From Macrostomum lignano (taxonomy: Eukaryota): DNA of 64,000 nucleotides. The notes beneath the pieces were generated by a model. That model saw nothing but the letters and a program-made list of their open reading frames with translations. It made no database searches and was not told the DNA's origin. Both the position numbers and the translations under genes were made by a program. Shown one piece after another: positions 5,083 through 19,651 of the stretch (its first letter is position 1; each line of letters opens with the position of its first letter). The stretch is taken from positions 62,001-126,000 of the forward strand of contig NIVC01000150.1 of assembly GCA_002269645.1 (NCBI GenBank), read 5' to 3'.

Positions 5083-7197
5083 CGCGTGGTGCAAGTTGCG
5101 TCACTCAAAAGTCAATACTGCTGAGCTAGAATTTTATACTGCGCACTCTTAAAGGTGGCGATTTTTTATGTTGTTGATAAAATATATCTATACATATAAA
5201 AATCAAAACTCTGTCTGTCTGTCTGTGTGTCTGTGGACATATATATATATAAAGTTTGCGAGTTAATGCAGGAATATGATAATATATTACTGCATAAATG
5301 TATATATGTCGCCGAACTGCTGTCGCCAAATACTGCCGCCGAGTCCAAGCTGTCGCCGAATTAACTGGTTCTCTAGCTAGGCTTCCCCTATGTATTGTCG
5401 CCGAAGTGACTGCATGGTAGCCCTACATGTAATTTAAGCCATTGATCTCTATATATCCATATCCATGCACCTAGCTTGATCCTAACCTCGAATTTATAAC
5501 CCCAAAATAAGTGTGGGGATAATTGCACCTGTGCTTTTCTGAAAAAAAAACAATGAATAGTAATTTTTACAGGAAAAAGTCACTTCGCTTCAACTCTTCC
5601 GCTCTGCAAAGCTTCAACTTGCTCTGGCACCGAAATGTCTAGCGTCTCACGCGGCTTCCCAATATTAGGGCTGCAGTGCATTATAAGAATATTTACTCTA
5701 GGTTCCTCTTAAAGCAGTAAAAACCCCGAATTTCAGACAAAATTGGTTTAAAAGTTATTAGATTTTTTATTTTATTAGCACCAGAACATTCTTAATCTTT
5801 GGTATTATTTTAATTTAGACGTTTGTGAAAAATTATCGTGCAGGGATCACTTGACGATAACAACTTAAGTCGAAGATTTAATATTTTATATTAGTACTTT
5901 AGGCATTCATTTAAAGTGTAGTCTTATTAAATAGGATAAAGTGGTAAAAATATAAGTTACTTAATATAACATTATTCACTCGCTAGCTTCTTAATTTATT
6001 ATTGCACTTCGGTGACTTGCTTTTGTCATGACAATGACAACGCATATTTTATCAACCTTTTCACAATTGTTGGTATGCCTAGCTACTCATTCTAGGGCCT
6101 AGCTAGTGTACTAAAGTGCTCTAGACCTAATGAGACAATGTTACAGTGTAGTGCTTAGCCTTGAGATTCTAGAAAAAAATTAACCTAGTAATTTTGCTTT
6201 TATTTTAATCTTGGAGCTCCTATTCTCACTGTTTTAATGCATTGATTTGATAATGAATTGTATCTTCCAATTATAAAAATCAAGATATCTATATAAATAA
6301 CCTATAAAGTATTAAAGTAATTAGAAGACAGGCAAATTATTATTTTATTTTAAAAGAAGATGCTTATAGAAGTCATTAGCAACAATTCTCTAAAGAGTTT
6401 ATAAATAAATATTATATCAAAGAGGGAACACCAAATTTGAATATTTTCTTTTAAAAGTAGCAAAGCTTAGTATCAGTGAGTATTTAATACTTGCATTAAA
6501 TTATACATATATTAAAAAACTACACTTTTCTTTTTAATATACAGCTTTTCAAGACATATATTATGATAACAAGTGTTAAAAAATTTATTTATTCTACAAA
6601 AAGCTTTTTTCTATAATTATAGTTAAAGATATATAGCATAACTTAATATTATATAAATGTTATACATATAAAATAAGCCTAGGATACATCAAATTGTACA
6701 AAATCAAGAAACTATATCTATCTACTGTTTTTCTGTTCAAATTGTACCAGCATGGCAATATACATAGAAAACATTAATTATTGTTAAACCTATTTCATAT
6801 CATCAACTCAATTTTTATCAAAATCACAAGCATTTTAACTTATACATTGCAGAAAAGTATACAATATATGGAATAAATAGGAATATATATTTCAAGTTGT
6901 TACTGCACCTCTAAACCAGAATATTTTGATATAAAAATTAATTTGCATATGCATTAGCTTATTTTAGATTGATAGACAGGTGCAGATTTTTAATTTCATA
7001 TAATTTGATGCATTTTCATATTGAAAACCTAGCCAATCTAGCTAGGTGACAAGGTAGTCAAGGTCAGGTTATGTTGCAACACTGATACAAAAAATAAATA
7101 AAGAGTTTTAAATAGTCAAGGCCAAAACTAAAGAGAGAGAAGATTTTAATTGAATGCAGAGCAAAGCTTTGTTGCAAAAAGGCTCACTGTGTACAAC

Positions 7198-7835
7198 ACT
7201 ACTATGGACTGGCAGATGGCGCGATTTTGCGAAGGTCCGTCGGGCTGATGTCGGCCTCTAGCACCGCGGCAAGGTGCTCCCTCGGGGTGTACACCCGGGG
7301 TGTACCTCCAGCGGGGTGGGTGTCCAGCGAGTGTACCTCCAGCGGGGTGGGCCTCCCGCGAGTGTACATCCGGCCGGCTGGGCGTCCAGCGAGTGTACCT
7401 TCAGCGCATGGGCCTCCCTCGGGTGTACATCCGGCGGGGGGATTCCCGCCCCTCCCACCAATGTCGTGTGCACGCGGTTAGTGTAGGAAGGAAACCCCCG
7501 ATGCTGACGCAGCCCTGTACACTGAGCAACCGGCCCCCCATGCGGGGGACAGAGAGCAGCCCCTGTAGCAGGAGGGGTAGTGCGTGGAGAGCCGCCATCC
7601 CCCTGTAGCAAGGGACAGATAACAGGCGGCCCCCTGTAGCAGTATGAGGTGGGGTACAAAGAGACACGGGGTGCTGGGACAGAGAGTGCGTGGAGGCACC
7701 CTGCGCTGCCCTGGCATGTCGCAGCACGCGGCGTGGACAGAGAGGGAGTGTGAGTCACACGGAGGGACAGAGAGCTTCCCCAGGCCGGGGTGGTAGAGGG
7801 ACAGACCGGCGGTGAGTGATAGAGAGCCCCCCAGG
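7198..7835 (+). repeat. Left terminal inverted repeat of the virus
   Basis: Reverse complement of 17058-17691 and 18453-19089; contains GTGTAC-core ~31-bp subrepeats and recurring GGGACAGA and CCCCTGTAGCA motifs. Confidence 0.95.
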
Positions 7836-7910
7836 CTGCAGAGGGACAGACAGGCCGCGAGCAACGTGTTAATGCAACCATAAATAGAAGCAGTGTACAA
7901 AACCCTCTGT

Positions 7911-8690
7911 ATGGAGAACATGGAAGAGGGTATAACTGATAACCCCTATTTCAGCAACGAGAGCGTGCGCGCCAGATTACCCCTCATTGAAAGATTGTTA
8001 TCAGACACTAGGAAAAGAATCGAGGGATTGACCGCAAAGGAGCGCTTAGAATTCACGTATCTAGCCCGGCTGGCATTCGTAACTGAAGTAAACATTGAGG
8101 AGAGAGAGGTGGCGTTGACTTGGGAGGAAGCAGAAGAAGCGATAAAAACCCGGTCCTGTATGGTCACAGCCAATCTATGGAGTGCGGCAATACACCTCAA
8201 TGACACGAGGGGGTTAATTGACACAGAGTTTGTTAGACAAGTTCACACACGCGTGTGCAGAGGACTGCTCCCGAATGCAGGATCGTATAGAATTAAGCAC
8301 GCCAAGCCAGCAGGCGCGAGTATGTATTACAGTGCCCCAGAAAATATTGAACGGCAGCTGGTAAAATTAACTAGAGACATAAAAGAGCCACAAATCTTGC
8401 GTGATGCAGTAGTGACAGGAGCATATTTCCTAGAAAAGTTTCTCACCATACACCCCTTTAGCGACGGCAATGGTAGAACTGCTAGGTTGTTATTATCAAA
8501 GTTGATCAACCGGATTCTGCCAGAACCCGTATCATTTGCATACGCAAATAGAGACACATATCTCAACTGTCTTTACGAAGCGCGCAGCAGCAACCGGGGG
8601 CTCCTAGCGGCGTATTTACTTTTATCAATTGAGAGAACCGTTCTACAGTGGAGGGAATGGTTGGAAATCTGTTCAGACGGCAGCCTATAA
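7911..8690 (+). CDS. Fic-domain (AMPylase-type) protein
   Basis: Canonical Fic motif HPFSDGNGRTARLL, upstream G.YR flap region (AGSYRIKHA) and a helix resembling the autoinhibitory segment (EVNIEE). First ATG is 7911; the ORF track starts at GTG 7893. Confidence 0.92.
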   Translation: MENMEEGITDNPYFSNESVRARLPLIERLLSDTRKRIEGLTAKERLEFTYLARLAFVTEVNIEEREVALTWEEAEEAIKTRSCMVTANLWSAAIHLNDTRGLIDTEFVRQVHTRVCRGLLPNAGSYRIKHAKPAGASMYYSAPENIERQLVKLTRDIKEPQILRDAVVTGAYFLEKFLTIHPFSDGNGRTARLLLSKLINRILPEPVSFAYANRDTYLNCLYEARSSNRGLLAAYLLLSIERTVLQWREWLEICSDGSL

Positions 8691-8724
8691 ATAAATAAAA
8701 TTGGTATTTCTCAACAATATCGAA

Positions 8725-9078
8725 ATGTACTGGCAATCGGAAATAGTGTACACCCACGTTGACAACGCAGTGCTGGAAGTGGGATATTGGGACCCAAACA
8801 AACCGCGTTTCCGCATCCACTGTCAAAACTGTAGCTGTCCAGGAGCCGTGTTTAGTCGAGCACAATGGCATCGAATGAAATTTCTGGGCACTAGCTGCAC
8901 AGATTACGATCTCGGAGGCGGCGCATCTATCAAAGTTATCGACGGGAAGCGCCTGTACGTAAAAGGAGACTGCGAATTTCACCTGTCAGACAAAATACTT
9001 TGTGCAGTTGAAAAGAATAGAGTCGACAATTTCTTCCACTATTTCTTTCTCGACGAATCTGACGAGTCAGAGGAATGA
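8725..9078 (+). CDS. Viral hypothetical protein (~117 aa, acidic tail; weak resemblance to PC4/whirly-like ssDNA-binding folds)
   Basis: ATG 40 nt after a TATAAATA motif; stop overlaps the next start (ATGA). The fold guess from LEVGY...FSRAQWHRM is inference only. Confidence 0.65.
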   Translation: MYWQSEIVYTHVDNAVLEVGYWDPNKPRFRIHCQNCSCPGAVFSRAQWHRMKFLGTSCTDYDLGGGASIKVIDGKRLYVKGDCEFHLSDKILCAVEKNRVDNFFHYFFLDESDESEE

Positions 9079-9590
9079 GCTGGATTTCTCGAGACTACCC
9101 GCTTTTATCGAGCAAAGAAAGGGCAGAGTACGAGACCCTGAAAAAGTCCACAGACTGGTTATGCATTTGTCACGGCAAACCAATTCCCGAACGATTAGTC
9201 ACCTTTAATGTCGAGGTAGACGAAATTGGGCAAGGGCCTTACAGCACCCAAGAATATACAGATGCCCGAATTGACTACTACTTTAGAGACAAGATGCATT
9301 TCAAAGCCAATCTTCAAAGAATGGAGCAGATAATTGCCCCAATATTACAAGAGGATCATCGTGAGAAAATACGGTACCGGAATCACCAGCCGATTGCTCC
9401 CTCGTGGACAGAACACCAAAGGATTTGGCGACCTAAACACAGTAGACCAGTGCTAGCGAAGTTGACTATCAACCCTCACTGCAGCTGCATTAACGACACG
9501 CCTCAAACCCCTCGACCAGAAGATCGAAACAAAAGGTTTATTTTTTCCGGATTTCCAACACCGGAAAGTGTCGTTAAAGAAGCACTATAA
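9075..9590 (+). CDS. Viral hypothetical protein (171 aa)
   Basis: Clean ATG-to-stop ORF coupled to the previous gene by an ATGA overlap; has CICH and HCSC motifs; no recognisable family. Confidence 0.65.
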   Translation: MSWISRDYPLLSSKERAEYETLKKSTDWLCICHGKPIPERLVTFNVEVDEIGQGPYSTQEYTDARIDYYFRDKMHFKANLQRMEQIIAPILQEDHREKIRYRNHQPIAPSWTEHQRIWRPKHSRPVLAKLTINPHCSCINDTPQTPRPEDRNKRFIFSGFPTPESVVKEAL

Positions 9591-9681
9591 CAAAAACGCC
9601 CAGCCACCCCACCCTCCGCCCAAGGGTATATAAGGAGGCGCTCAGGGTGTGAGACCCACTCTCAGCAACAGCAGCAGCAAC

Positions 9682-10362
9682 ATGGATACCGTTCAAGACT
9701 ACAATAGTGTTAGGATCGACCTATTCTCTCTCAAGTCGAGAGGTCCAAGCTACAACGGAACCGAGACGTACGACATTGAGTACGACGAACAGGGCCCTCT
9801 CTATCTTGCCAATGCGACGCCCGTACTGATTGTCAAGGGTGTGAGAACCGACAATGAAGGCCGCGAATTCATCATTCTTTCCCAAAAGCACTTGGAGAGC
9901 TGCATACCAGAAGCGTTCAATTCCGTGTGTCACCAGCTCTCTATCCAAGGAATGGCGCTATTGGGGTACAACCCCACTTTTGGCTGCGACAGCGCTGCAT
10001 TCGGATTGGCTCACGACTTTAAAATGTACGACAAGAGCGGCAAGTTGTGCACCGACTACAAGAACAAGACGGGCTACTATAGAGTACTGTTCGCCCTAGA
10101 CACGGCGGTGATTCACGACTCGGTTCTAACCGCGGTACCAAAAATTCAACAACTGCAATTCATAGAAGCTCCCAAGCAGGCGTTTGACCGCTGCTACTGG
10201 ATTCCACCGTTAAAAATCAAGGTAGGACGCAAGCGCGGAGCTGGTGGAGCTGAGCGGAAACAAAAGCAACCGAAAAAACCGCTTGCAGAACGTCGTGTGC
10301 GTAAACAGGGTGTTTTGCGCAAGGTGGAACCACCTACCGAACTTGGACTGGGCGCGCGCTAG
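9682..10362 (+). CDS. Viral hypothetical protein with beta-rich core (possible OB-fold SSB) and basic NLS-like C-terminus
   Basis: GC-box-like tract and TATATAA (9627) precede ATG 9682. The FKMYD..G...YRVLF...KIQQLQF pattern is reminiscent of viral SSBs (inference). The 3' end overlaps the TBP-like frame. Confidence 0.65.
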   Translation: MDTVQDYNSVRIDLFSLKSRGPSYNGTETYDIEYDEQGPLYLANATPVLIVKGVRTDNEGREFIILSQKHLESCIPEAFNSVCHQLSIQGMALLGYNPTFGCDSAAFGLAHDFKMYDKSGKLCTDYKNKTGYYRVLFALDTAVIHDSVLTAVPKIQQLQFIEAPKQAFDRCYWIPPLKIKVGRKRGAGGAERKQKQPKKPLAERRVRKQGVLRKVEPPTELGLGAR

Positions 10363-10762
10363 AACGTTTCATAGACCCCGGGCATTGTACAACCTGAGGA
10401 TCGGAAAGTGTACAATAAACTTTTTCAAACGTTCATTATCTGCCATTGTTTTTGGTTGCCAATCAACCAACGATGTGCTGCGTCTTTTTGCTCAATGTAA
10501 ACCAAACTCTGTTGTTATCACTACCGGTACTTATCGTGCAGAAGTTAATGTTAAGCCAAACTTTTTCCGCCTTGCCAACTCGAGCTCGCGCTGGGTTGAG
10601 TGGGAGAGTGAGGTATTCAATGGGCTTGTAATAAAGTCCCCATTCCGCAAGGCCAAGTGCCTGCTGTGCGGAAAGAATGGTCGGTTAGTGTTCCTAGGAA
10701 TACGAAACTATGACGAACTGTGTAAAATGTACGACCACGTGACTGCTATTCTGCAACTCTAA
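10244..10762 (+). CDS. TATA-binding-protein (TBP)-like two-repeat protein; no in-frame ATG start
   Basis: LQNVVCVN matches TBP LQNIVSTVN; IVFGCQSTND matches VCTGAKSEE; WESEVFNGLVIK...CLLCGKNGRLVFLGIRNYDELCKMYDHVTAIL matches YEPELFPGLIYR...[31 protein letters not shown]. The frame is open from 10226 with no early ATG. Confidence 0.72.
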   Translation: MELSGNKSNRKNRLQNVVCVNRVFCARWNHLPNLDWARARTFHRPRALYNLRIGKCTINFFKRSLSAIVFGCQSTNDVLRLFAQCKPNSVVITTGTYRAEVNVKPNFFRLANSSSRWVEWESEVFNGLVIKSPFRKAKCLLCGKNGRLVFLGIRNYDELCKMYDHVTAILQL

Positions 10763-10800
10763 TTATGCTTTGCTTATAAATAAACAAAATATGCACATGT

Positions 10801-11190
10801 ATGCACGCAATGCTTACCACCTTAATAATGACAAACGGAATTTCTCGTCTTTGTTCTTGCCGTCGCGAGCTAGAGGAGCTCGGTGACGCGCGACCACATC
10901 GAAGGAGGGCCATTATTAGGGGAGCCGATAATGAGTTGATGCAGTGTCTGTGCGAGTTAAGTCACAATGTACTCAAGGGCAATATCGATCTATCCCCTAG
11001 ACAGTTTGCAAGGTTGAAACGTTATAGAGAAGCCCTGCATGACATGGCCGACAAAAAACTGTCTATAAATAGGAAGAAGAATATGATACTATCGGACCCT
11101 CAAGTTGGAGGATTCCTACCAATTCTCGCCAAGATTGCTGCACCGTTAATCACTGGACTGTTTGGTGGTCTGCTAGGACAACGACGTTGA
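10801..11190 (+). CDS. Putative virion core protein, adenovirus pX(mu)-like C-terminus
   Basis: Basic body plus QVGG|FLPILAKIAAPLITGLFGGLL, similar to adenovirus pX (xRGG|ILPLLIPLIAAAIG) after a protease site; TATAAATA at 10775. Confidence 0.75.
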   Translation: MHAMLTTLIMTNGISRLCSCRRELEELGDARPHRRRAIIRGADNELMQCLCELSHNVLKGNIDLSPRQFARLKRYREALHDMADKKLSINRKKNMILSDPQVGGFLPILAKIAAPLITGLFGGLLGQRR

Positions 11191-11192
11191 AA

Positions 11193-11774
11193 ATGGACAA
11201 GTACGTTGTGGTCCCCGAGGAGGAATTCAATCAGCTTAGACAGGGTACTCCGCGAGAAATTGCCCCAAAATCGGAGTACGAAAAACTTGTAGAGTACAAT
11301 GCAAAGCTACAGACCCAATTGGCTAAAGTAAAACCCCAAAAGACGACAAAGCAGCTATTTTCTGATAGGCAACAACGTATATGGAATATACTAACAGAAA
11401 AGCACCCCAGCCTAAATTACAACCAATCGTGGGAAGTCGTTTTTGATGGTGAAACTTGGGGTGGCAGCAACGTTTTTGATCTTCTACAAGCCGTCACCAC
11501 CAACACTAATAATCACCCGAAATATTCGACCGCTTTCTGGGCTCTGCTAGACAAGGCCCGTATACCAATGTCTATGCTCGGTCGGAAACAGCTCCCTGTG
11601 GAGGAAAAGAAGGTTGACCATATGGTTGGTACCGATGATTACCGCGATGAATATGAGCACACAATTGCGACAGACACCCGCGATTTAACGACCACGCGCA
11701 ACAAAGGTGTAAATGCTATGCCCAACTTGTGGATCAAGGTGCCGGGATGGGTAAATATCACGATTACCAACTAA
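11193..11774 (+). CDS. Conserved Polinton/adintovirus hypothetical protein
   Basis: MDKYVVVP start and ...EVVFDGE...GSNVFDLL...P...F...L....IP pattern that I recognise from Polinton accessory ORFs; tightly coupled to the upstream stop. Confidence 0.6.
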   Translation: MDKYVVVPEEEFNQLRQGTPREIAPKSEYEKLVEYNAKLQTQLAKVKPQKTTKQLFSDRQQRIWNILTEKHPSLNYNQSWEVVFDGETWGGSNVFDLLQAVTTNTNNHPKYSTAFWALLDKARIPMSMLGRKQLPVEEKKVDHMVGTDDYRDEYEHTIATDTRDLTTTRNKGVNAMPNLWIKVPGWVNITITN

Positions 11775-11946
11775 GACCGCCCCGGAACCGAAAATACGAT
11801 ACTCTTTATAAATAGAACCCTAATCCATACATAACCGCGCCCGGCGGTCATGGGCGCAGCAGCCGCCGCATCAAAGCTTTGTGTAGACAACTCCCCAGCC
11901 GACATTACGTGCAACTATTCATGCTGTGCATCCACACTTGTTGTCA

Positions 11947-13026
11947 ATGAGGGCTCTAACCGCTCTTCGTCGAGTTTACGAACAAGGAGCCGCCGCTTTT
12001 TCAAATGCTGCCCGTGTCTATCAGGAGGCCAAACGTCTGGCGCCAAACCTGACAAGACGCCAAACCAGGGAATGGCTAGAAACCCAACCGAGTTACACCC
12101 GTCACCGGAGAGTCAACAGGACATTTAAAACGGGAAAAGTAATGTCGGGAGGATTCATGGAAACTCTACAAGCCGATTTGATGGACATGTCGCGATACAA
12201 ACGTTGGAATGACGGACATAAATATATACTAGTTGTTATTGATGTGCTTAGTAAGCAGGCTTTTTGTAGGGCAATTAAACTAAAGAGTGATACCCCCGCA
12301 GCGTTTGAGTCAATGTTGGCGAATGATTTCCCTGCCCGCCCCCTTTACCTGCACGTGGATCGGGGTACCGAGTTTTATAATCAGCGAATGCGCCGCATAC
12401 TAAAAGACAATAATGTTAAAATGTACAGCACCAACTCTGTGTACAAGGCAAACATGGCCGAGAGGCTGATTAGAACTCTTCGAAAGCGTCTGGCTCGCTA
12501 CTTTGAGCACAACAACACGTGGCGTTGGGTTGACTACTTACCCAATTTGGTAGGTAATTACAACAACACGACGCATTCTACTATTGAGATGAAACCGTCA
12601 AGTGTAGGGTTCCACAATCAGAAGCGTGTGTGGGAAAAGCTCTACCCGGATCAGCAAAAAGACGACCCCGTATATAAAAAGGGGGATTTTGTGAGAATTT
12701 CGAAATCTCGCCGGGCATTCGACAAGGAGGCGTACGACATGTATAGTGAGGAGGTGTACATTATATCCAAAGTTTGTCCTGGACCCCCACATTTTTATCG
12801 TATTTCTGATTTGTCTGGTGAAGTGATTGAGGGACGGTTTTACTACAATGAACTGTCCAAATCTACCCGACCCGAGCGTTTTGTAATCAATAAAGTTTTG
12901 CGTAGAAACGTGTTAATAAATGGTGTTGCGCACCATTACGTTAGCTGGCGCGGTTATCCCGACACTTTTAATTCATTTGTACCTGTAAATGAAGTTATAA
13001 ATATACGTCAACGTAATAATAACTAA
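11947..13026 (+). CDS. Retroviral-like DDE integrase with C-terminal chromodomain (Polinton c-INT)
   Basis: LQADLMDM...KYILVVIDVLSK (D), LHVDRGTEF (D), MAERLIRTL (E); C-terminal VSWRGYPDTFNSFV chromo-like motif; consistent with the 6-bp TSD. Confidence 0.95.
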   Translation: MRALTALRRVYEQGAAAFSNAARVYQEAKRLAPNLTRRQTREWLETQPSYTRHRRVNRTFKTGKVMSGGFMETLQADLMDMSRYKRWNDGHKYILVVIDVLSKQAFCRAIKLKSDTPAAFESMLANDFPARPLYLHVDRGTEFYNQRMRRILKDNNVKMYSTNSVYKANMAERLIRTLRKRLARYFEHNNTWRWVDYLPNLVGNYNNTTHSTIEMKPSSVGFHNQKRVWEKLYPDQQKDDPVYKKGDFVRISKSRRAFDKEAYDMYSEEVYIISKVCPGPPHFYRISDLSGEVIEGRFYYNELSKSTRPERFVINKVLRRNVLINGVAHHYVSWRGYPDTFNSFVPVNEVINIRQRNNN

Positions 13027-13029
13027 TGC

Positions 13030-14168
13030 ATGGCTACCATGCATCTCTTTCTGCCTAGCAATGCGTGCCCCGAGCACTATCCCGAAAATAATCCGGCTCA
13101 TTATTTTATTAATTTACCGGACACTCTCCACTTTCCGAATCATGAGGTTTGCCTCGAACGGATCTACTTTACCAAAGAATTTGAATCTTTCAAAAAATCT
13201 ATACCGATCACCATTCGCGAACAGGAGGGCCTCTTGACGGCTTCGTCGTTTGCAAACCTTTGTCTCGCAGCGGGTCTGAAAACCCCTGAAGAATGTATTT
13301 CCGGCTTTCTAAACGGTATCCGATACGTTGAAGGGGATAATAAGAAAATTGTCTTTTTAAGAACATCCCCAACCGCCTTTATGATTGTGAATACTTCAAA
13401 ATCCACTGTCGGCATCAAATTCCCGGATACCCTACCCAAGGTGTTTAAACTAGTCGCCGGCTTCGAGTCTAATGAGGATCTACCTACTGAACTCGTATTA
13501 CACGCGGGGTGTGCAGCCTCCATCACCGCAGTTGTTGAGGAACCGACTGTGCAGTCAATGGACCATGCTCCAATAATAAGACAAGTTACTAGCGCAGCGT
13601 CTGATCAAATCTATTTTATGCAGGGTGGATACTATAGTACACCTAAAAGAATGGTGGAGGAACTCAACAATTTAATTTGGAAACGGATCAAAGATCTCAT
13701 AGCGGCTCCAGCACCTAGAACGGACTTTTTCGGATACAGCGAAGTTACGAATAGGTGTTATTACATTGGCTCGATGGATTACATGTTTGGGCTGGGGCGC
13801 TTGACCGGCATGCTTGGTTTCCCAGAGCATGATTATACAACCCCATTTTTCGGTATATCGGACTTTGGGCAGCCACATCAATGGAATTAACCGGTGGAAT
13901 ACAAACAATGTACATCTATTCGAGCATAGTCGATTCTGTTATTGTAGGAGACGTTAAAGTTCCTCTGTTGGGAGCTATACCGATGGATCCCAAAGTTCAG
14001 GGCGGTCGCGAGTACTACGAGTTTGTCAATCCGGCATATCTACCGCTGGTTAAGCACCCATTCAAAACTATTGAAGTACAAATTAACGATGATATGGGCA
14101 GGGATATGACAAAAGTAATGAGGGGCAAGACCGTCTTGAGCGTTAACATCCGCGAAAAGAAGCTATAA
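13030..14168 (+). CDS. Penton / minor capsid protein, split by a 1-nt frameshift near 13846-13850
   Basis: N-terminus FLPSN...YPENN...F.INLP..L...EVCL and C-terminus MYIYSSIV...VGDVKVPLL...Y.PL...FKTIEVQI are the two halves of the Polinton penton. Adding one T to the T5 run at 13846-13850 joins ORFs 13030-13890 and 13881-14168. Confidence 0.85.
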
Positions 14169-14211
14169 ATAAACAGCACAGCCTCAGTAAACTATATCCT
14201 AGTGCTTAATC

Positions 14212-14556
14212 ATGCCTTCTATTCTGATTGGTGGAGCTTTGCCTGTTTTCGCGGGCGCCCAGAGGGGCAACGGTTTGTTTGGAAGCATTGCCCGCTTCGC
14301 GCTGCCAATTCTAAAGAGTTTTGGTAAAAACGTTCTCCGTCATGGTACTAGAGCCCTAGCAACTACTGTTAACGATAGCCTCGAGCAAGGAGGCAATTTG
14401 AAGGAGTCTGTCCTGCGCAATTCTGTTCAGGCTGCCAAGGACGCCTTTAAAGACACGGTTACCCAAAGGGGTAGCGGACGAAGAAGAAAAAAGGCTCCGA
14501 AGCGTCTCAATTCAGACATTTTCAGCACTATAAATAAAAAGCCCCGCTTCAATTAG
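14212..14556 (+). CDS. Small protease-processed virion protein (adenovirus pVI/pVII-like)
   Basis: LIGG|A, QRGNG and QRGSG motifs; amphipathic LFGSIARFALPILKSFGK helix; basic RRRKK tail; lies directly before the MCP. Confidence 0.72.
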   Translation: MPSILIGGALPVFAGAQRGNGLFGSIARFALPILKSFGKNVLRHGTRALATTVNDSLEQGGNLKESVLRNSVQAAKDAFKDTVTQRGSGRRRKKAPKRLNSDIFSTINKKPRFN

Positions 14557-14585
14557 ATTCGCCGAATCGAGTCTGTCTACTAAAC

Positions 14586-15869
14586 ATGTCCGAGTGTCTG
14601 TGTACAAAGTCCGAGTTTGAGCTCTTTGCCCCTCGAGCCCACCAGATTGCCGCTGTAGGTTCAACTACTGAAGAAATCCACCCGGTTGCCAGCGTCGAAA
14701 ATGCGAGTGTGGTTGAGTTTAGAATTGTGGGCGGCGAGACGTTTGTCGATCTTAATGACATTGATCTCGAGATTAAAGGTTGTATTAAAAGAGCTAATGG
14801 AGCCGATTTGGCGGCGGATTCAAACGTGGCGCCAATCAATTACCTCTTGGAGACCATGTTCAAAAACGTGTCTCTTTCCATAAATGGTACACATATCGAG
14901 TCTAGCAACAACAACCATGCCTACAAGGCGTACATTCGTACATGCTTGAGTTATGGGTCTGATTCAAAGTCTAACCAACTGCGGATGATGGGCTACGCTA
15001 AAGACGCTGGGGGTCAAATGGCTGCGGTTGGAAATCCTGGCTTTGTAACTCGCAAGGCGATGGCTGCCGGTTCTCGAACATTTCACCTGTATGGCCCTCT
15101 TAGTCTCGACTTTTTTGTCACCAACGATCGTATGCTGCTACCCTACACTGATATGGTGGTTACGCTCACTCTGCAAAATTCGGGATTCGTTGTAGAGAAT
15201 CACGCCGAAGGGGTTGATGCAAAGTTGGTTCTTCAAAGTGCAAAATTACACGTTCGTCGGGTAAAGGCTAACCCCCAACTGGCCTTGGAGATTGAAGAAC
15301 AGCTGGCAACTCAGAATGCAGTCTACCCCATCGAGCGCCTCGTTGTACACAACACCTCTGTCGCTGTAGGAGTTCGCGACGTGTCAATCAATAATATTTT
15401 CCCGGAGCAGAAGCCTAAACTTGTCATTATGGGGATGGTAAATAGTGCCGCATATAACGGGGTGGCTACCCATAATCCGTTCAATTTCGAGCCATTTGGG
15501 GCTGACAGTGTGGCCCTGTACAAGGACGGTGTCAGTCTGTGCGGTCAACCATTCACTCCAAGGTTCGCTGCCCAAAACTATGCTCGCGAATACGCCATGC
15601 TGTTTAAGAGCCTAGGGAAAATGAATCGCGATTTGGACATTGACCTGTCATATTCGGATTATCGCGCCGGTTACTGCTTATTTGCGTGGAATCTAATGCC
15701 CGATATGGAACTGGGTGGACATAGCATGCCTCGCGAGAGAGGGAATCTGACCCTACAGATAAAGTTTTCTGCAGCCCTACCTGCCGGGATTAACGTTTTG
15801 GTGTTTGGTTACTTTGACAACGCGGTGCAAATCACTAGAGGCCGCCAGCCCATTCTGGACTACGTATGA
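14586..15869 (+). CDS. Double jelly-roll major capsid protein (hexon/PY)
   Basis: 427 aa; EC..KSEFELF N-terminus, YPIER, NPFNF and GYCLFAWNL.PD motifs typical of Polinton MCPs; position between core protein and protease. Confidence 0.93.
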   Translation: MSECLCTKSEFELFAPRAHQIAAVGSTTEEIHPVASVENASVVEFRIVGGETFVDLNDIDLEIKGCIKRANGADLAADSNVAPINYLLETMFKNVSLSINGTHIESSNNNHAYKAYIRTCLSYGSDSKSNQLRMMGYAKDAGGQMAAVGNPGFVTRKAMAAGSRTFHLYGPLSLDFFVTNDRMLLPYTDMVVTLTLQNSGFVVENHAEGVDAKLVLQSAKLHVRRVKANPQLALEIEEQLATQNAVYPIERLVVHNTSVAVGVRDVSINNIFPEQKPKLVIMGMVNSAAYNGVATHNPFNFEPFGADSVALYKDGVSLCGQPFTPRFAAQNYAREYAMLFKSLGKMNRDLDIDLSYSDYRAGYCLFAWNLMPDMELGGHSMPRERGNLTLQIKFSAALPAGINVLVFGYFDNAVQITRGRQPILDYV

Positions 15870-16303
15870 ACACGTTGGAAATTTTGGAGTGTTTAAAACT
15901 ACCTGTGGAAGTGCACGTTTGCCCTCTCGACAGAATTCCTGCACCTGTTTACCCTGCTGCATATGTAATTAATTTTGACACGGGTAATCTGCCAGGCACC
16001 CACTGGGGACTGATTTGCCTACACGATGATAAGAGTGTGACATTTTTTGACCCTCTGTGTATTGAACCCGTGCCGGAATTGCTCTCGGCTTGGATCTCGA
16101 AGCATGTACATTCACCTGTTGCTATGAATCGCCACCCTGTTCAACACCCTCTAAGTGTAGCGTGTGGGCCGCATGTGATTTTTGTGGCCGAAAAGCACTT
16201 TTTAGAGGGGTTGTCGATTGAAAAGATTTTAAGGGAATGTTACTCTACCAATCTGCTTGAAAATGATTTGATGGTTCGAAAACATGTTCTACAAATAAAA
16301 TAG
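15866..16303 (+). CDS. Adenain/Ulp1-type maturation cysteine protease
   Basis: INFD...PGTHW (His), FFDP (Asp), QHPLSVACG (Gln/Cys) in catalytic order. Confidence 0.93.
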   Translation: MNTLEILECLKLPVEVHVCPLDRIPAPVYPAAYVINFDTGNLPGTHWGLICLHDDKSVTFFDPLCIEPVPELLSAWISKHVHSPVAMNRHPVQHPLSVACGPHVIFVAEKHFLEGLSIEKILRECYSTNLLENDLMVRKHVLQIK

Positions 16304-16337
16304 TTTTTAATATTTGGAGTGTCAACTCGCCCTGAAA

Positions 16338-16966
16338 ATGTACCAAACAATTGATCCTGACGCTCTAAAGTTTGCTCCAAATACTTCGGCGATTTTTGCT
16401 GGTGTTAACCAGAGCGGAAAAACAACTCTTGTTAAAGAATTGCTGCGAAACGAGTTTTTTCAGGACCCTAAGCCTGTTCGCGTTGATTGGTTTGGGCACT
16501 ATCCAGACCCGGAACTGTTTGAATTACCGTACCCTGTCAATTTTCGCTCGTCTACATTTAACCCTGAAACCTATGTTCCCGCTCCGAATATTCTATCGTT
16601 GTCGATGATCAAATGCAAGCCATGGAAAAAAACGCTGCTTTTACCGCATTTTTCACTCGCAAAGTCAGCCATGTGGGATTCCGGCTTTGGTACCTTGTAC
16701 AAAACCTGTTTGCCAAGGGCAAGGAGCACCGCACTCAATCCCTTAACGCAAACTACCTTGTATTGTTCCGCAATGTACGGGACGTTAGTACAGTCGCCCA
16801 TATTGCAAAGCAGCTTGTCCCCGCTAACCCAAAAAGTTTTGTTCAAATGTACGAAGACGCCACTAGGGAGCCCTACTCCTACTTGATTGTTAATTGCTTG
16901 CAGAACGCATCTGTTCGCTACTATGCTAATGTGTTGGGGCGCTACCCCGTAGTTTATGCTAAATAA
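16338..16966 (+). pseudogene. A32/FtsK-like packaging ATPase, copy 1, with a 1-bp deletion at ~16596
   Basis: Otherwise matches copy 2, but reads ATTCTATCGTT instead of ATTCTATTCGTT, splitting the ORF at Walker B; either a real lesion or a sequencing error. Confidence 0.85.
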
Positions 16967-17057
16967 AACACTGTTGGAGAGCTTTGCTCTGTTTGCCGGA
17001 TGGCCTGAACCTGAAACAACTAAAATACGTGTTTTTTCTTTTCAAGTCCTCTACTGC

Positions 17058-17691
17058 CCTGGGGGGAGCTCTCTATCACTCACCGCCGGTCTGTCCCTCT
17101 ACCACCCCGGCCTGGGGAAGCTCTCTGTCCCTCCGTGTGACTCACACTCCCTCTCTGTCCACGCCGCGTGCTGCGACATGCCAGGGCAGCGCAGGGTGCC
17201 TCCACGCACTCTCTGTCCCAGCACCCCGTGTCTCTTTGTACCCCACCTCATACTGCTACAGGGGGCCGCCTGTTATCTGTCCCTTGCTACAGGGGGATGG
17301 CGGCTCTCCACGCACTACCCCTCCTGCTACAGGGGCTGCTCTCTGTCCCCCGCATGGGGGGCCGGTTGCTCAGTGTACAGGGCTGCGTCAGCATCGGGGG
17401 TTTCCTTCCTACACTAACCGCGTGCACACGACATTGGTGGGAGGGGCGGGAATCCCCCCGCCGGATGTACACCCCGAGGGAGGCCCATGCGCTGAAGGTA
17501 CACTCGCTGGACGCCCAGCCGGCCGGATGTACACTCGCGGGAGGCCCACCCCGCTGGAGGTACACTCGCAGGACACCCACCCCGCTGGAGGTACACCCCG
17601 GGTGTACACCCCGAGGGAGCACCTTGCCGCGGTGCTAGAGGCCGACATCAGCCCGACGGACCTTCGCAAAATCGCGCCATCTGCCAGTCCA
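17058..17691 (-). repeat. Internal right TIR copy (terminus identical to the left TIR but missing the last 7 nt)
   Basis: Ends ...cgcaaaatcgcgccatctgccagtcca and joins directly to a copy of 16297 onward. Confidence 0.92.
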
Positions 17692-17731
17692 AAATAGTTT
17701 TTAATATTTGGAGTGTCAACTCGCCCTGAAA

Positions 17732-18361
17732 ATGTACCAAACAATTGATCCTGACGCTCTAAAGTTTGCTCCAAATACTTCGGCGATTTTTGCTGGTGTT
17801 AACCAGAGCGGAAAAACAACTCTTGTTAAAGAATTGCTGCGAAACGAGTTTTTTCAGGACCCTAAGCCTGTTCGCGTTGATTGGTTTGGGCACTATCCAG
17901 ACCCGGAACTGTTTGAATTACCGTACCCTGTCAATTTTCGCTCGTCTACATTTAACCCTGAAACCTATGTTCCCGCTCCGAATATTCTATTCGTTGTCGA
18001 TGATCAAATGCAAGCCATGGAAAAAAACGCTGCTTTTACCGCATTTTTCACTCGCAAAGTCAGCCATGTGGGATTCCGGCTTTGGTACCTTGTACAAAAC
18101 CTGTTTGCCAAGGGCAAGGAGCACCGCACTCAATCCCTTAACGCAAACTACCTTGTATTGTTCCGCAATGTACGGGACGTTAGTACAGTCGCCCATATTG
18201 CAAAGCAGCTTGTCCCCGCTAACCCAAAAAGTTTTGTTCAAATGTACGAAGACGCCACTAGGGAGCCCTACTCCTACTTGATTGTTAATTGCTTGCAGAA
18301 CGCATCTGTTCGCTACTATGCTAATGTGTTGGGGCGCTACCCCGTAGTTTATGCTAAATAA
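17732..18361 (+). CDS. A32/FtsK-like DNA packaging ATPase, intact copy 2
   Basis: Walker A GVNQSGKT, Walker B LFVVDD, and QNLF..GK..RT.SLNANYLVLFRN.RD A32 motif. Confidence 0.94.
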   Translation: MYQTIDPDALKFAPNTSAIFAGVNQSGKTTLVKELLRNEFFQDPKPVRVDWFGHYPDPELFELPYPVNFRSSTFNPETYVPAPNILFVVDDQMQAMEKNAAFTAFFTRKVSHVGFRLWYLVQNLFAKGKEHRTQSLNANYLVLFRNVRDVSTVAHIAKQLVPANPKSFVQMYEDATREPYSYLIVNCLQNASVRYYANVLGRYPVVYAK

Positions 18362-18452
18362 AACACTGTTGGAGAGCTTTGCTCTGTTTGCCGGATGGCC
18401 TGAACCTGAAACAACTAAAATACGTGTTTTTTCTTTTCAAGTCCTCTACTGC

Positions 18453-19089
18453 CCTGGGGGAGCTCTCTATCACTCACCGCCGGTCTGTCCCTCTACCACC
18501 CCGGCCTGGGGAAGCTCTCTGTCCCTCCGTGTGACTCACACTCCCTCTCTGTCCACGCCGCGTGCTGCGACATGCCAGGGCAGCGCAGGGTGCCTCCACG
18601 CACTCTCTGTCCCAGCACCCCGTGTCTCTTTGTACCCCACCTCATACTGCTACAGGGGGCCGCCTGTTATCTGTCCCTTGCTACAGGGGGATGGCGGCTC
18701 TCCACGCACTACCCCTCCTGCTACAGGGGCTGCTCTCTGTCCCCCGCATGGGGGCCGGTTGCTCAGTGTACAGGGCTGCGTCAGCATCGGGGGTTTCCTT
18801 CCTACACTAACCGCGTGCACACGACATTGGTGGGAGGGGCGGGAATCCCCCCGCCGGATGTACACCCCGAGGGAGGCCCATGCGCTGAAGGTACACTCGC
18901 TGGACGCCCAGCCGGCCGGATGTACACTCGCGGGAGGCCCACCCCGCTGGAGGTACACTCGCTGGACACCCACCCCGCTGGAGGTACACCCCGGGTGTAC
19001 ACCCCGAGGGAGCACCTTGCCGCGGTGCTAGAGGCCGACATCAGCCCACCTCACCTCCAAAATCAAGCCATCTGCCGTTGCTTAGTAGT
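18453..19089 (-). repeat. Outer right TIR with variant terminal ~45 bp, abutting the TSD
   Basis: Matches the left TIR up to GGGCTGATGTCGGC; spacers between conserved terminal blocks differ; ends TAGTAGT|TACAAC. Confidence 0.93.
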
Positions 19090-19210
19090 TACAACTATGT
19101 TGCACCAGCTAGGCAACTATGGCAGCTAATGAATATGACTATGGGAATATAGTGATTTACCCCAGTTTCAAGTGAAATACATCTGTACCCCTCGTTTCAG
19201 AAAGCAAGTA

Positions 19211-19651
19211 ATGTCGACCACTCCAGGCCAGTCCAACTCCGTTTCAATCGAGCAAACAGAGGAGGCCAAATTAAAACAAAAATATCCGAATTTGAATCGC
19301 AAAAGCATTGGCAGCTCCGTGCTGCACAAGCGGCTGAACAATAAAGGTCAGAAATATTTTGACAGCGGCGACTACAACATGGCCAAGGCTAAGGTAGTCG
19401 GCGCTCACCGGGCTCCCACCAGGGGCTCCGATCTGCTGGACACCGCCACAGGCGACACCATGGCAACGCCGGAAAGTGTGCCAGCTGTACGCAAGAAATC
19501 TCTAGTTGGCGGCCTTGACCCGCTGCTGCCGCCTCAGCAATTGCTGCAACCGCAGCAGCTGCAGCAGCAGCAGCACCGGAAGCCGTCCATCGCTTGCACA
19601 GAAGACGACCCCATGGCTATTGGCCGGCCAATTGTGCAATCAGATCAGTGA
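19211..19651 (+). CDS. ENSA: Endosulfine-alpha / ARPP-19 family PP2A-B55 inhibitor
   Basis: KQKYPNL...LHKRL...QKYFDSGDYNMAKAK Greatwall-site motif; splice acceptor TTTCAG at 19195-19200 just upstream. Confidence 0.92.
   Translation: MSTTPGQSNSVSIEQTEEAKLKQKYPNLNRKSIGSSVLHKRLNNKGQKYFDSGDYNMAKAKVVGAHRAPTRGSDLLDTATGDTMATPESVPAVRKKSLVGGLDPLLPPQQLLQPQQLQQQQHRKPSIACTEDDPMAIGRPIVQSDQ

Follow-up and report, generated by a model that had tools for sequence, protein, structure and literature searches.

The window, the whole 64,000-nucleotide stretch of Macrostomum lignano DNA that we analysed, holds a virus-like mobile element between positions 7198 and 19089. The first gene of this element encodes a Fic protein. 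The features are as follows.

7192 to 7197, no strand: left 6-bp target-site duplication, TACAAC (sequence; empty-site contig)
7198 to 7832, plus strand: left terminal inverted repeat (TIR), about 635 bp (repeat comparison)
7879 to 7886, plus strand: TATA-like box, 24 bp ahead of the Fic start codon, function putative (sequence)
7911 to 8690, plus strand: Fic gene, 259 aa, intronless, intact, no internal stop (ORF listing, Pfam match, AlphaFold model, fold match)
8034 to 8102, plus strand: predicted inhibitory helix, residues 42-62, then conserved Glu64 with its codon at 8100-8102 (model helix, alignment, ungapped register with canonical Fics)
8451 to 8486, plus strand: catalytic Fic motif HPFSDGNGRTAR, residues 181-192 (sequence, alignment)
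8686 to 8699, plus strand: TATAAATAAATAAA across the Fic stop, likely the Fic poly(A) signal plus the ORF2 TATA box (sequence)
8725 to 9078, plus strand: ORF2, a 117-aa orphan that adjoins Fic in the copies examined and is absent together with Fic from a sister family
11947 to 13026, plus strand: retroviral-type integrase (Pfam rve 38.1 bits, cut-off 32.6)
13030 to 14168, plus strand: putative minor-capsid-like gene, two ORFs in this assembly with a break near 13880-13890
14586 to 15869, plus strand: putative major-capsid-like gene, 427 aa, no Pfam match (similarity to 440-aa ORFs)
15866 to 16303, plus strand: putative protease-like ORF
16297 to 19049, plus strand: right-end tandem duplication with a unit of ~1.4 kb, containing the ATPase-like gene twice and the right TIR twice
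18457 to 19089, minus strand: outer right TIR
19090 to 19095, no strand: right target-site duplication, TACAAC (sequence; empty-site contig)

The insertion has an empty counterpart, as a contig from run X2 joins 7191 to 19090 with six letters that fit either side. We found the 635-bp TIRs, a 6-bp target-site duplication (within the range of 5-8 bp) and the rve integrase that define Polintons/Mavericks in passages of PMC10748475 and 10.64898/2026.10.13.758929. The capsid, ATPase and protease ORFs had no family matches, and we named them because they are 27-41% identical to ORFs that further Polinton-like elements of the genome carry; the 427-aa capsid-like ORF shares ~30% identity with 440-aa ORFs from other Polinton families of this genome. 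The ORF pair at 13030-14168 is presumably the minor capsid, given its position and the usual Polinton layout. We detected no protein-primed DNA polymerase on the element, which has no ORF longer than 427 aa between its TIRs, and no helicase in 7198-19089. We conclude that the element works like a Polinton yet does not carry the polymerase. Other copies are about 10.5 kb, and the copy in the window is longer because its right end is duplicated. This duplication (16297-19049), in which the first ATPase-like copy is frameshifted near 16600, may be real or an assembly artefact. The outermost ~35 bp of the outer right TIR resemble the ends of polymerase-only elements (see below).

ORF2 had no Pfam, NCBIfam, Atlas or sequence homologue, and its single-sequence fold was unusable (pLDDT 40); a resemblance to PC4 was unsupported. 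Between ORF2 and the integrase, at about 10330-10762, an open frame of ~140 codons contains a CxxC pair; it is missing from the ATG-only ORF list of the window, and it is conserved in the sister family, where it has an ATG start. The insertion lies ~120 bp ahead of an endosulfine (ENSA/Arpp19-type) ORF at window 19200-19651. The endosulfine transcript is spliced-leader trans-spliced at 19200, and an empty allele of the insertion is present in public data.

The left TIR ends at 7832, and therefore the Fic ORF starts 78 bp inside it; with the frames in the TIR itself set aside, this is the intact first gene that had been described beside the left TIR. The protein belongs to the Fic family by its Pfam score (PF02661, 53 bits against a cut-off of 24, E 6.6e-14). 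The AlphaFold model has a mean pLDDT of 85, falling below 50 at residues 66-69, and in a Foldseek search it resembled FICD structures best (prob 1.00, TM up to 0.71), with wsv406 of WSSV as the best viral match (TM 0.60). A 99% identical counterpart is recorded under Macrostomum lignano. The GC content of the gene is that of its element, and words of a kind similar to the TATA-like box, TATAAATA, also lie upstream of other element genes (repeat family D9). The catalytic motif reads H181-P-F-S-D-G-N-G-R-T-A-R192, a complete HxFx(D/E)GN(G/K)RxxR pattern, and the only change in it among 28 other loci compared was A191T in one decayed copy. We found no hydrophobic N-terminal segment (the highest Kyte-Doolittle mean over 19 residues was -0.04 within the first 30 windows), and a Pfam scan of the protein gave no TPR match. 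Thus, the transmembrane (TM) segment and TPR repeats that characterise FICD/HYPE are missing, and the element Fic is therefore likely not ER-luminal. The first-pass annotation had reported both the complete motif and the lack of TM and TPR regions, and our scans agree with it.

That annotation had also pointed to an N-terminal segment resembling the (S/T)xxxE(G/N) autoinhibitory helix, with a non-canonical residue after the Glu. The segment, EVNIEEREVALTWEE, corresponds to residues 59-73. In an alignment of 137 relatives, 133 have Glu at position 64, 126 have Glu or Asp at position 59 and 132 have Tyr or Phe at position 56; the residue just after Glu64, at position 65, varies throughout the subfamily. 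V60 occupies the S/T place and the stretch reads V60-N-I-E-E64-R65; the literal motif is not present in the element Fic. The YxxESNxIE sequence of canonical Fics aligns gap-free on F56-V-T-E59-V60-N61-I-E-E64, and a profile alignment to canonical Fics chose another register in low-confidence columns, with the FICD Glu off E64. We consider E64 the likely counterpart of FICD Glu234 because the Glu is conserved, the YxxESNxIE match is gap-free, and the model has a helix at residues 42-62. As far as the alignment goes, the odd neighbours of Glu64 are a trait of the subfamily. The earlier description therefore holds for the inhibitory-type segment and gains a subfamily-wide reading of the residue after the Glu.

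Class II Fics, those with an N-terminal inhibitory helix, such as metazoan FICD/HYPE and Bacteroides BT_2513, share with the element Fic the fold, the full motif and, by prediction, a pre-core helix ending at a conserved Glu. The element Fic differs from FICD in its lack of TM and TPR regions and in having V and R in place of S/T and G/N around the Glu, and it differs from class II Fics in belonging to a separate subfamily, split from canonical Fics with support of 100/99. Judged by its sequence, it appears to work like a class II Fic while departing from the literal motif. Passages of PMC8097203 describe the inhibitory Glu of FICD as restraining AMPylation and as required for de-AMPylation, and constitutive de-AMPylation is described for SoFic in part of 10.64898/2026.07.09.737422.

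A genome search with Fic returned 69 matches. Among the best 30 loci of these 69, the match to the window extended upstream into the left-TIR region in 28; of the other two, the first begins at a contig end and the second matches from 7858 onwards only. The full Fic ORF was intact in 16 of 29 loci, equal to 13 of 22 insertion sites, and broken or partial in the remaining 13 loci. We counted dN/dS per insertion site (29 loci at 22 sites), with duplicate assemblies of one insertion merged, and used a ratio of synonymous to non-synonymous sites of 1 to 3.4. Variants common to at least two sites comprised 34 synonymous and 33 non-synonymous changes (omega 0.28, p 5e-7). Variants found at a single site gave an omega of 0.65 (p 0.12), plus 3 stops. 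The conserved positions, of which 30 were listed, were struck by just 3 of 64 non-synonymous variants. With these results, we conclude that the Fic copies are under purifying selection. The first-pass annotation had counted a want of such selection against its interpretation, and the variants shared between insertion sites speak for function. The pattern is that expected if selection acts during element replication and copies decay after insertion.

The Fic ORF is covered by contigs from four runs that we presumed to be RNA data, and the cover is flat along the element; in two of the four, the endosulfine gene next to the element carries the spliced-leader sequence known from the literature. 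Read cover of the Fic ORF is not proof of transcription, because the DNA of some 25 copies could yield it. The genome also contains old decayed fragments of Fic plus ORF2 at about 75% DNA identity (L043:4700-6000 and L044:4400-5500), which stand without other element genes in the 10 kb examined.

The presence of Fic varies among sibling elements, which the first-pass annotation had singled out for checking. A sister family, with a capsid 88% identical to that of the Fic family and a dS of 1.6-2.6, lacked Fic in all 16 stretches examined. This family is also without a polymerase and lies on more than 30 contigs, a lower bound from 98 of 451 candidates scored. Three of the 16 stretches had no usable left end or ORF3 start and were set aside; in each of the 13 copies tested, a remnant of the Fic stop and the ORF2 start is present at the same place. 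The remnants align from window 8665 to 8775-8798, that is, over the last 8 Fic codons plus the start of ORF2. They score 54-74 against shuffle maxima of 32-41, above all 60 shuffles for every copy. The 13 copies trace to one loss and, as members of a single family, are not independent; the remnant is limited to those 8 codons plus ORF2 sequence. From the remnants it follows that the common ancestor likely had both Fic and ORF2, and that one branch lost both and still spread. Fic is thus likely, on this sequence evidence, to be old in the element lineage and not essential. Because Fic was lost without visible cost, its benefit would be small or conditional.

Of ten polymerase loci examined, five are 9-10 kb elements flanked by target-site duplications, with the same end type as the Fic element and no integrase or capsid matches. 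Three of these five share terminal variants of 20-33 bp with copies of the Fic family. The outer 33 bp of the TIR (7198-7230 and 19057-19089) are hypervariable, with 15 distinct versions among 22 left ends; a single copy may have different variants at its left and right ends, and several variants recur on the polymerase-only elements. The outer right end in the window is an apparent hybrid with the end of a polymerase-only element. The pattern of terminal variants would fit a two-segment Polinton that exchanges termini. Since the Fic element has no replicase and separate polymerase elements carry the same ends, it likely depends on a partner. Further elements, L361-L373 (G000 C56, C102, C135, C467, C544, C885, C2093, C3824, C4137 and C4144), have the same TIR start and none of the genes of the Fic element, and are possibly non-autonomous derivatives. 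One of them, on C135, has one weak integrase-like match, and one spans 18.4 kb with a perfect target-site duplication and no frame of at least 350 aa.

When 1.84 billion representatives were searched with a profile, 281 proteins had E <1e-30. Among 204 proteins compared, the nearest relatives of the element Fic were a gene of the host itself, host gene A (P0059), and the Logan protein P0093. Host gene A (PAA92674.1, PAA82702.1, PAA58089.1) is 40% identical near full length, over residues 17-255 of the element Fic, and has an identical catalytic motif and the same Glu; it differs in its intron, its longer C-terminal tail and its location outside mobile elements. The three proteins form a clade with support of 100/99 in a careful 44-row tree, 33 rows of which were picked from 143 subfamily proteins, and with an SH-aLRT of 99 in a quick 90-row tree. 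The branching order inside the trio has support of 98/77 and an AU p of 0.28. The 44-row tree also splits the subfamily from canonical bacterial Fics and FICD (100/99). AU tests rejected a grouping of the element Fic with FICD (p 3e-121, nematode FICD P0045) and with the giant-virus-like Fic L071 (p 0.002). The host's own FICD is a separate gene.

The subfamily also contains protist and giant-virus-like members, and the named relatives among 26 representatives looked up were Macrostomum genes and one EukProt protein, from Epipyxis. With a subfamily profile, no locus among the 80 prokaryotic-genome and 80 metagenome matches listed reached 130 bits (best scores 111-112), compared with 182-248 for 30 held-out members. 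At least 130 bits were reached in 2 of 89 viral loci among the matches listed, both with an identical protein. The other element genes had no match in these 249 listed loci, and the phage collection gave one weak match. L074, which neighbours a giant-virus capsid, was rejected as a subfamily member (score <110, basal). A Fic of the same subfamily lies at L071:7590-8513, on a giant-virus-like contig with Lon, FtsJ, dUTPase and LRR genes.

In host gene A, codon 73 of P0059 is followed by a GT-AG intron, with splice sites read in two of three genomic copies and exon 1 present in all three. The gene adjoins a second Fic paralogue and a MYRF gene, and no other element genes lie beside it in the stretches examined. 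Between the element gene and host gene A, synonymous sites are saturated (pS 0.81, dN 0.52). As the host gene has an intron and the element gene has none, and divergence is saturated, an old capture by way of mRNA is the simplest history. The direction from host to element is likely, from a comparison that covers this flatworm genome alone. The first-pass annotation had proposed horizontal acquisition and had counted grouping with host FICD paralogues, as a recent passive capture, against it. An acquired gene remains part of our account, and its source, judged from the trees and the matches listed, is neither bacterial nor FICD; the gene does group with a host paralogue, the intron-containing non-FICD gene, but the capture is old and selected rather than recent and passive. 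The host has three non-FICD Fic genes in all (L038:247-3597, L037:4460-4678, L041:4815-5540): A, with the intron; B, in tandem with A and beside MYRF; and C. An ORF near C (L041:7972-8703) has no Pfam match and looks, by eye, loosely like a motif-less Fic.

Taken together, we favour, with a probability of roughly 0.58, a model in which the gene is an old, selectively kept accessory Fic, likely captured through mRNA from a non-FICD host gene, and its product is a predicted self-inhibited AMP transferase or eraser that acts on a cytosolic or nuclear host protein, probably one shared with the host paralogue. The mRNA of a non-FICD host Fic gene would have been copied long ago into a Polinton without polymerase. 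In the enzyme, Glu64 would keep ATP from being positioned against Arg192, the role that Glu234 has in FICD; at rest, AMPylation would then be weak and de-AMPylation possible. By this prediction, the enzyme would attach AMP to a host protein or take it off to the advantage of the element, with a target that would overlap that of the host paralogue. The benefit to the element would be conditional, and not essential.

A history in the opposite direction, in which the virus lineage brought Fic and a domesticated copy became host gene A and gained its intron later, appears unlikely. It would account for the element branching outside host A plus P0093 in both trees, with weak support, for the giant-virus-like contig L071/L072 within the subfamily, and for the presence of Fics in invertebrate DNA viruses. 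Yet the host has three deeply diverged members of the subfamily, and host A, P0093 and the outgroup P0143 have in common a GTQT motif that is altered in the element. Other Polinton families of this genome also yielded no Fic match (37 matches from 40 candidates, and 49 from 58). As to function, we consider it decidedly unlikely that the non-FICD flatworm Fics form, as Sofic does in bacteria, an AMPylation-based antiviral or stress arm and that the Polinton captured one of these Fics as a de-AMPylase or decoy that disarms it. That Fic has no function for the element and is passive cargo is the least probable reading, since the selection signal (omega 0.28, p 5e-7) and a motif that stayed intact despite saturated synonymous divergence largely refute it, even though the sister family dispenses with Fic and 13 of 29 loci are broken or partial.

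We think it very unlikely that Fic is a toxin with ORF2 as its antidote, in an addiction or incompatibility module. ORF2 does follow Fic in the copies examined, old decayed ones included, and both are gone from the sister family, but one deletion removes adjacent genes together whatever their role. Parts of the literature offer precedents, in that bacterial Sofic has a small downstream antitoxin (PMC12249575) and a toxin-antidote element arose from the cargo of a nematode Maverick (10.1101/2022.07.12.499685). Here, Fic retains its own inhibitory-type Glu64, the (S/T)xxxE(G/N) motif was not seen by eye in ORF2, and a Fic-less family has spread to more than 30 contigs of the same genome. An unregulated toxin and an essential role both sit badly with the retained inhibitory Glu and with a sister family that thrives without Fic. 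Another possibility is that the proteins which Fic controls or puts out of action belong to the partner polymerase-only segment, or to rival Polintons, and not to the host. The element lacks a replicase, and 5 of 10 polymerase loci are separate with the same end type, 3 of them sharing terminal variants, so that a partner is likely needed. The enzyme, however, comes from a host-gene lineage, and the sister family, equally without polymerase, manages without Fic; we regard this, too, as highly improbable. Of what the first-pass annotation proposed, early expression, any given target, toxicity, addiction and helper interference stay conjectural.

The model of a captured, self-inhibited accessory Fic adds to what is described for related elements and viruses. 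Cargo of nematode Maverick/Polinton elements includes wasp proteases and krma kinases, according to part of 10.1101/2022.07.12.499685; the cargo here differs in being a Fic, intronless and matched in GC to its element, on a polymerase-less carrier. Passages of PMC5552708 report Fic genes with a conserved motif from bivalve herpesviruses, nimaviruses and nudiviruses. WSSV wsv406, the FIC-like protein of Oryctes rhinoceros nudivirus and the Fics of bivalve malacoherpesviruses resemble the element Fic in being viral Fics with the conserved motif, whereas they come from large autonomous viruses and are 22-24% identical to it. We found no report of a Fic in a Polinton/Maverick in the literature searched, which excluded supplements and subscription journals. 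Fic as Polinton cargo brings familiar parts together in a way that looks new, and the Fic subfamily it comes from is uncharacterised.

Part of PMC4454073 describes several eukaryotic Fic groups of independent origin, and most animals are described, in passages of PMC8097203, as having a single Fic gene, that of the ER enzyme FICD. Macrostomum lignano has three further Fic genes of another subfamily, predicted to be cytosolic or nuclear. If the flatworm Fics were a defence arm, the Polinton Fic would mimic, on the viral side, a defence enzyme not yet described from animals. The finding adds predicted AMP transferases to the proteases and kinases described as Maverick cargo, and the Fic-less sister family and the host paralogue provide natural controls in a laboratory flatworm. 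A virus-like element that keeps a Fic copy under selection points to an unexplored AMPylation target, inside an animal cell, with a part in the conflict between host and virus.
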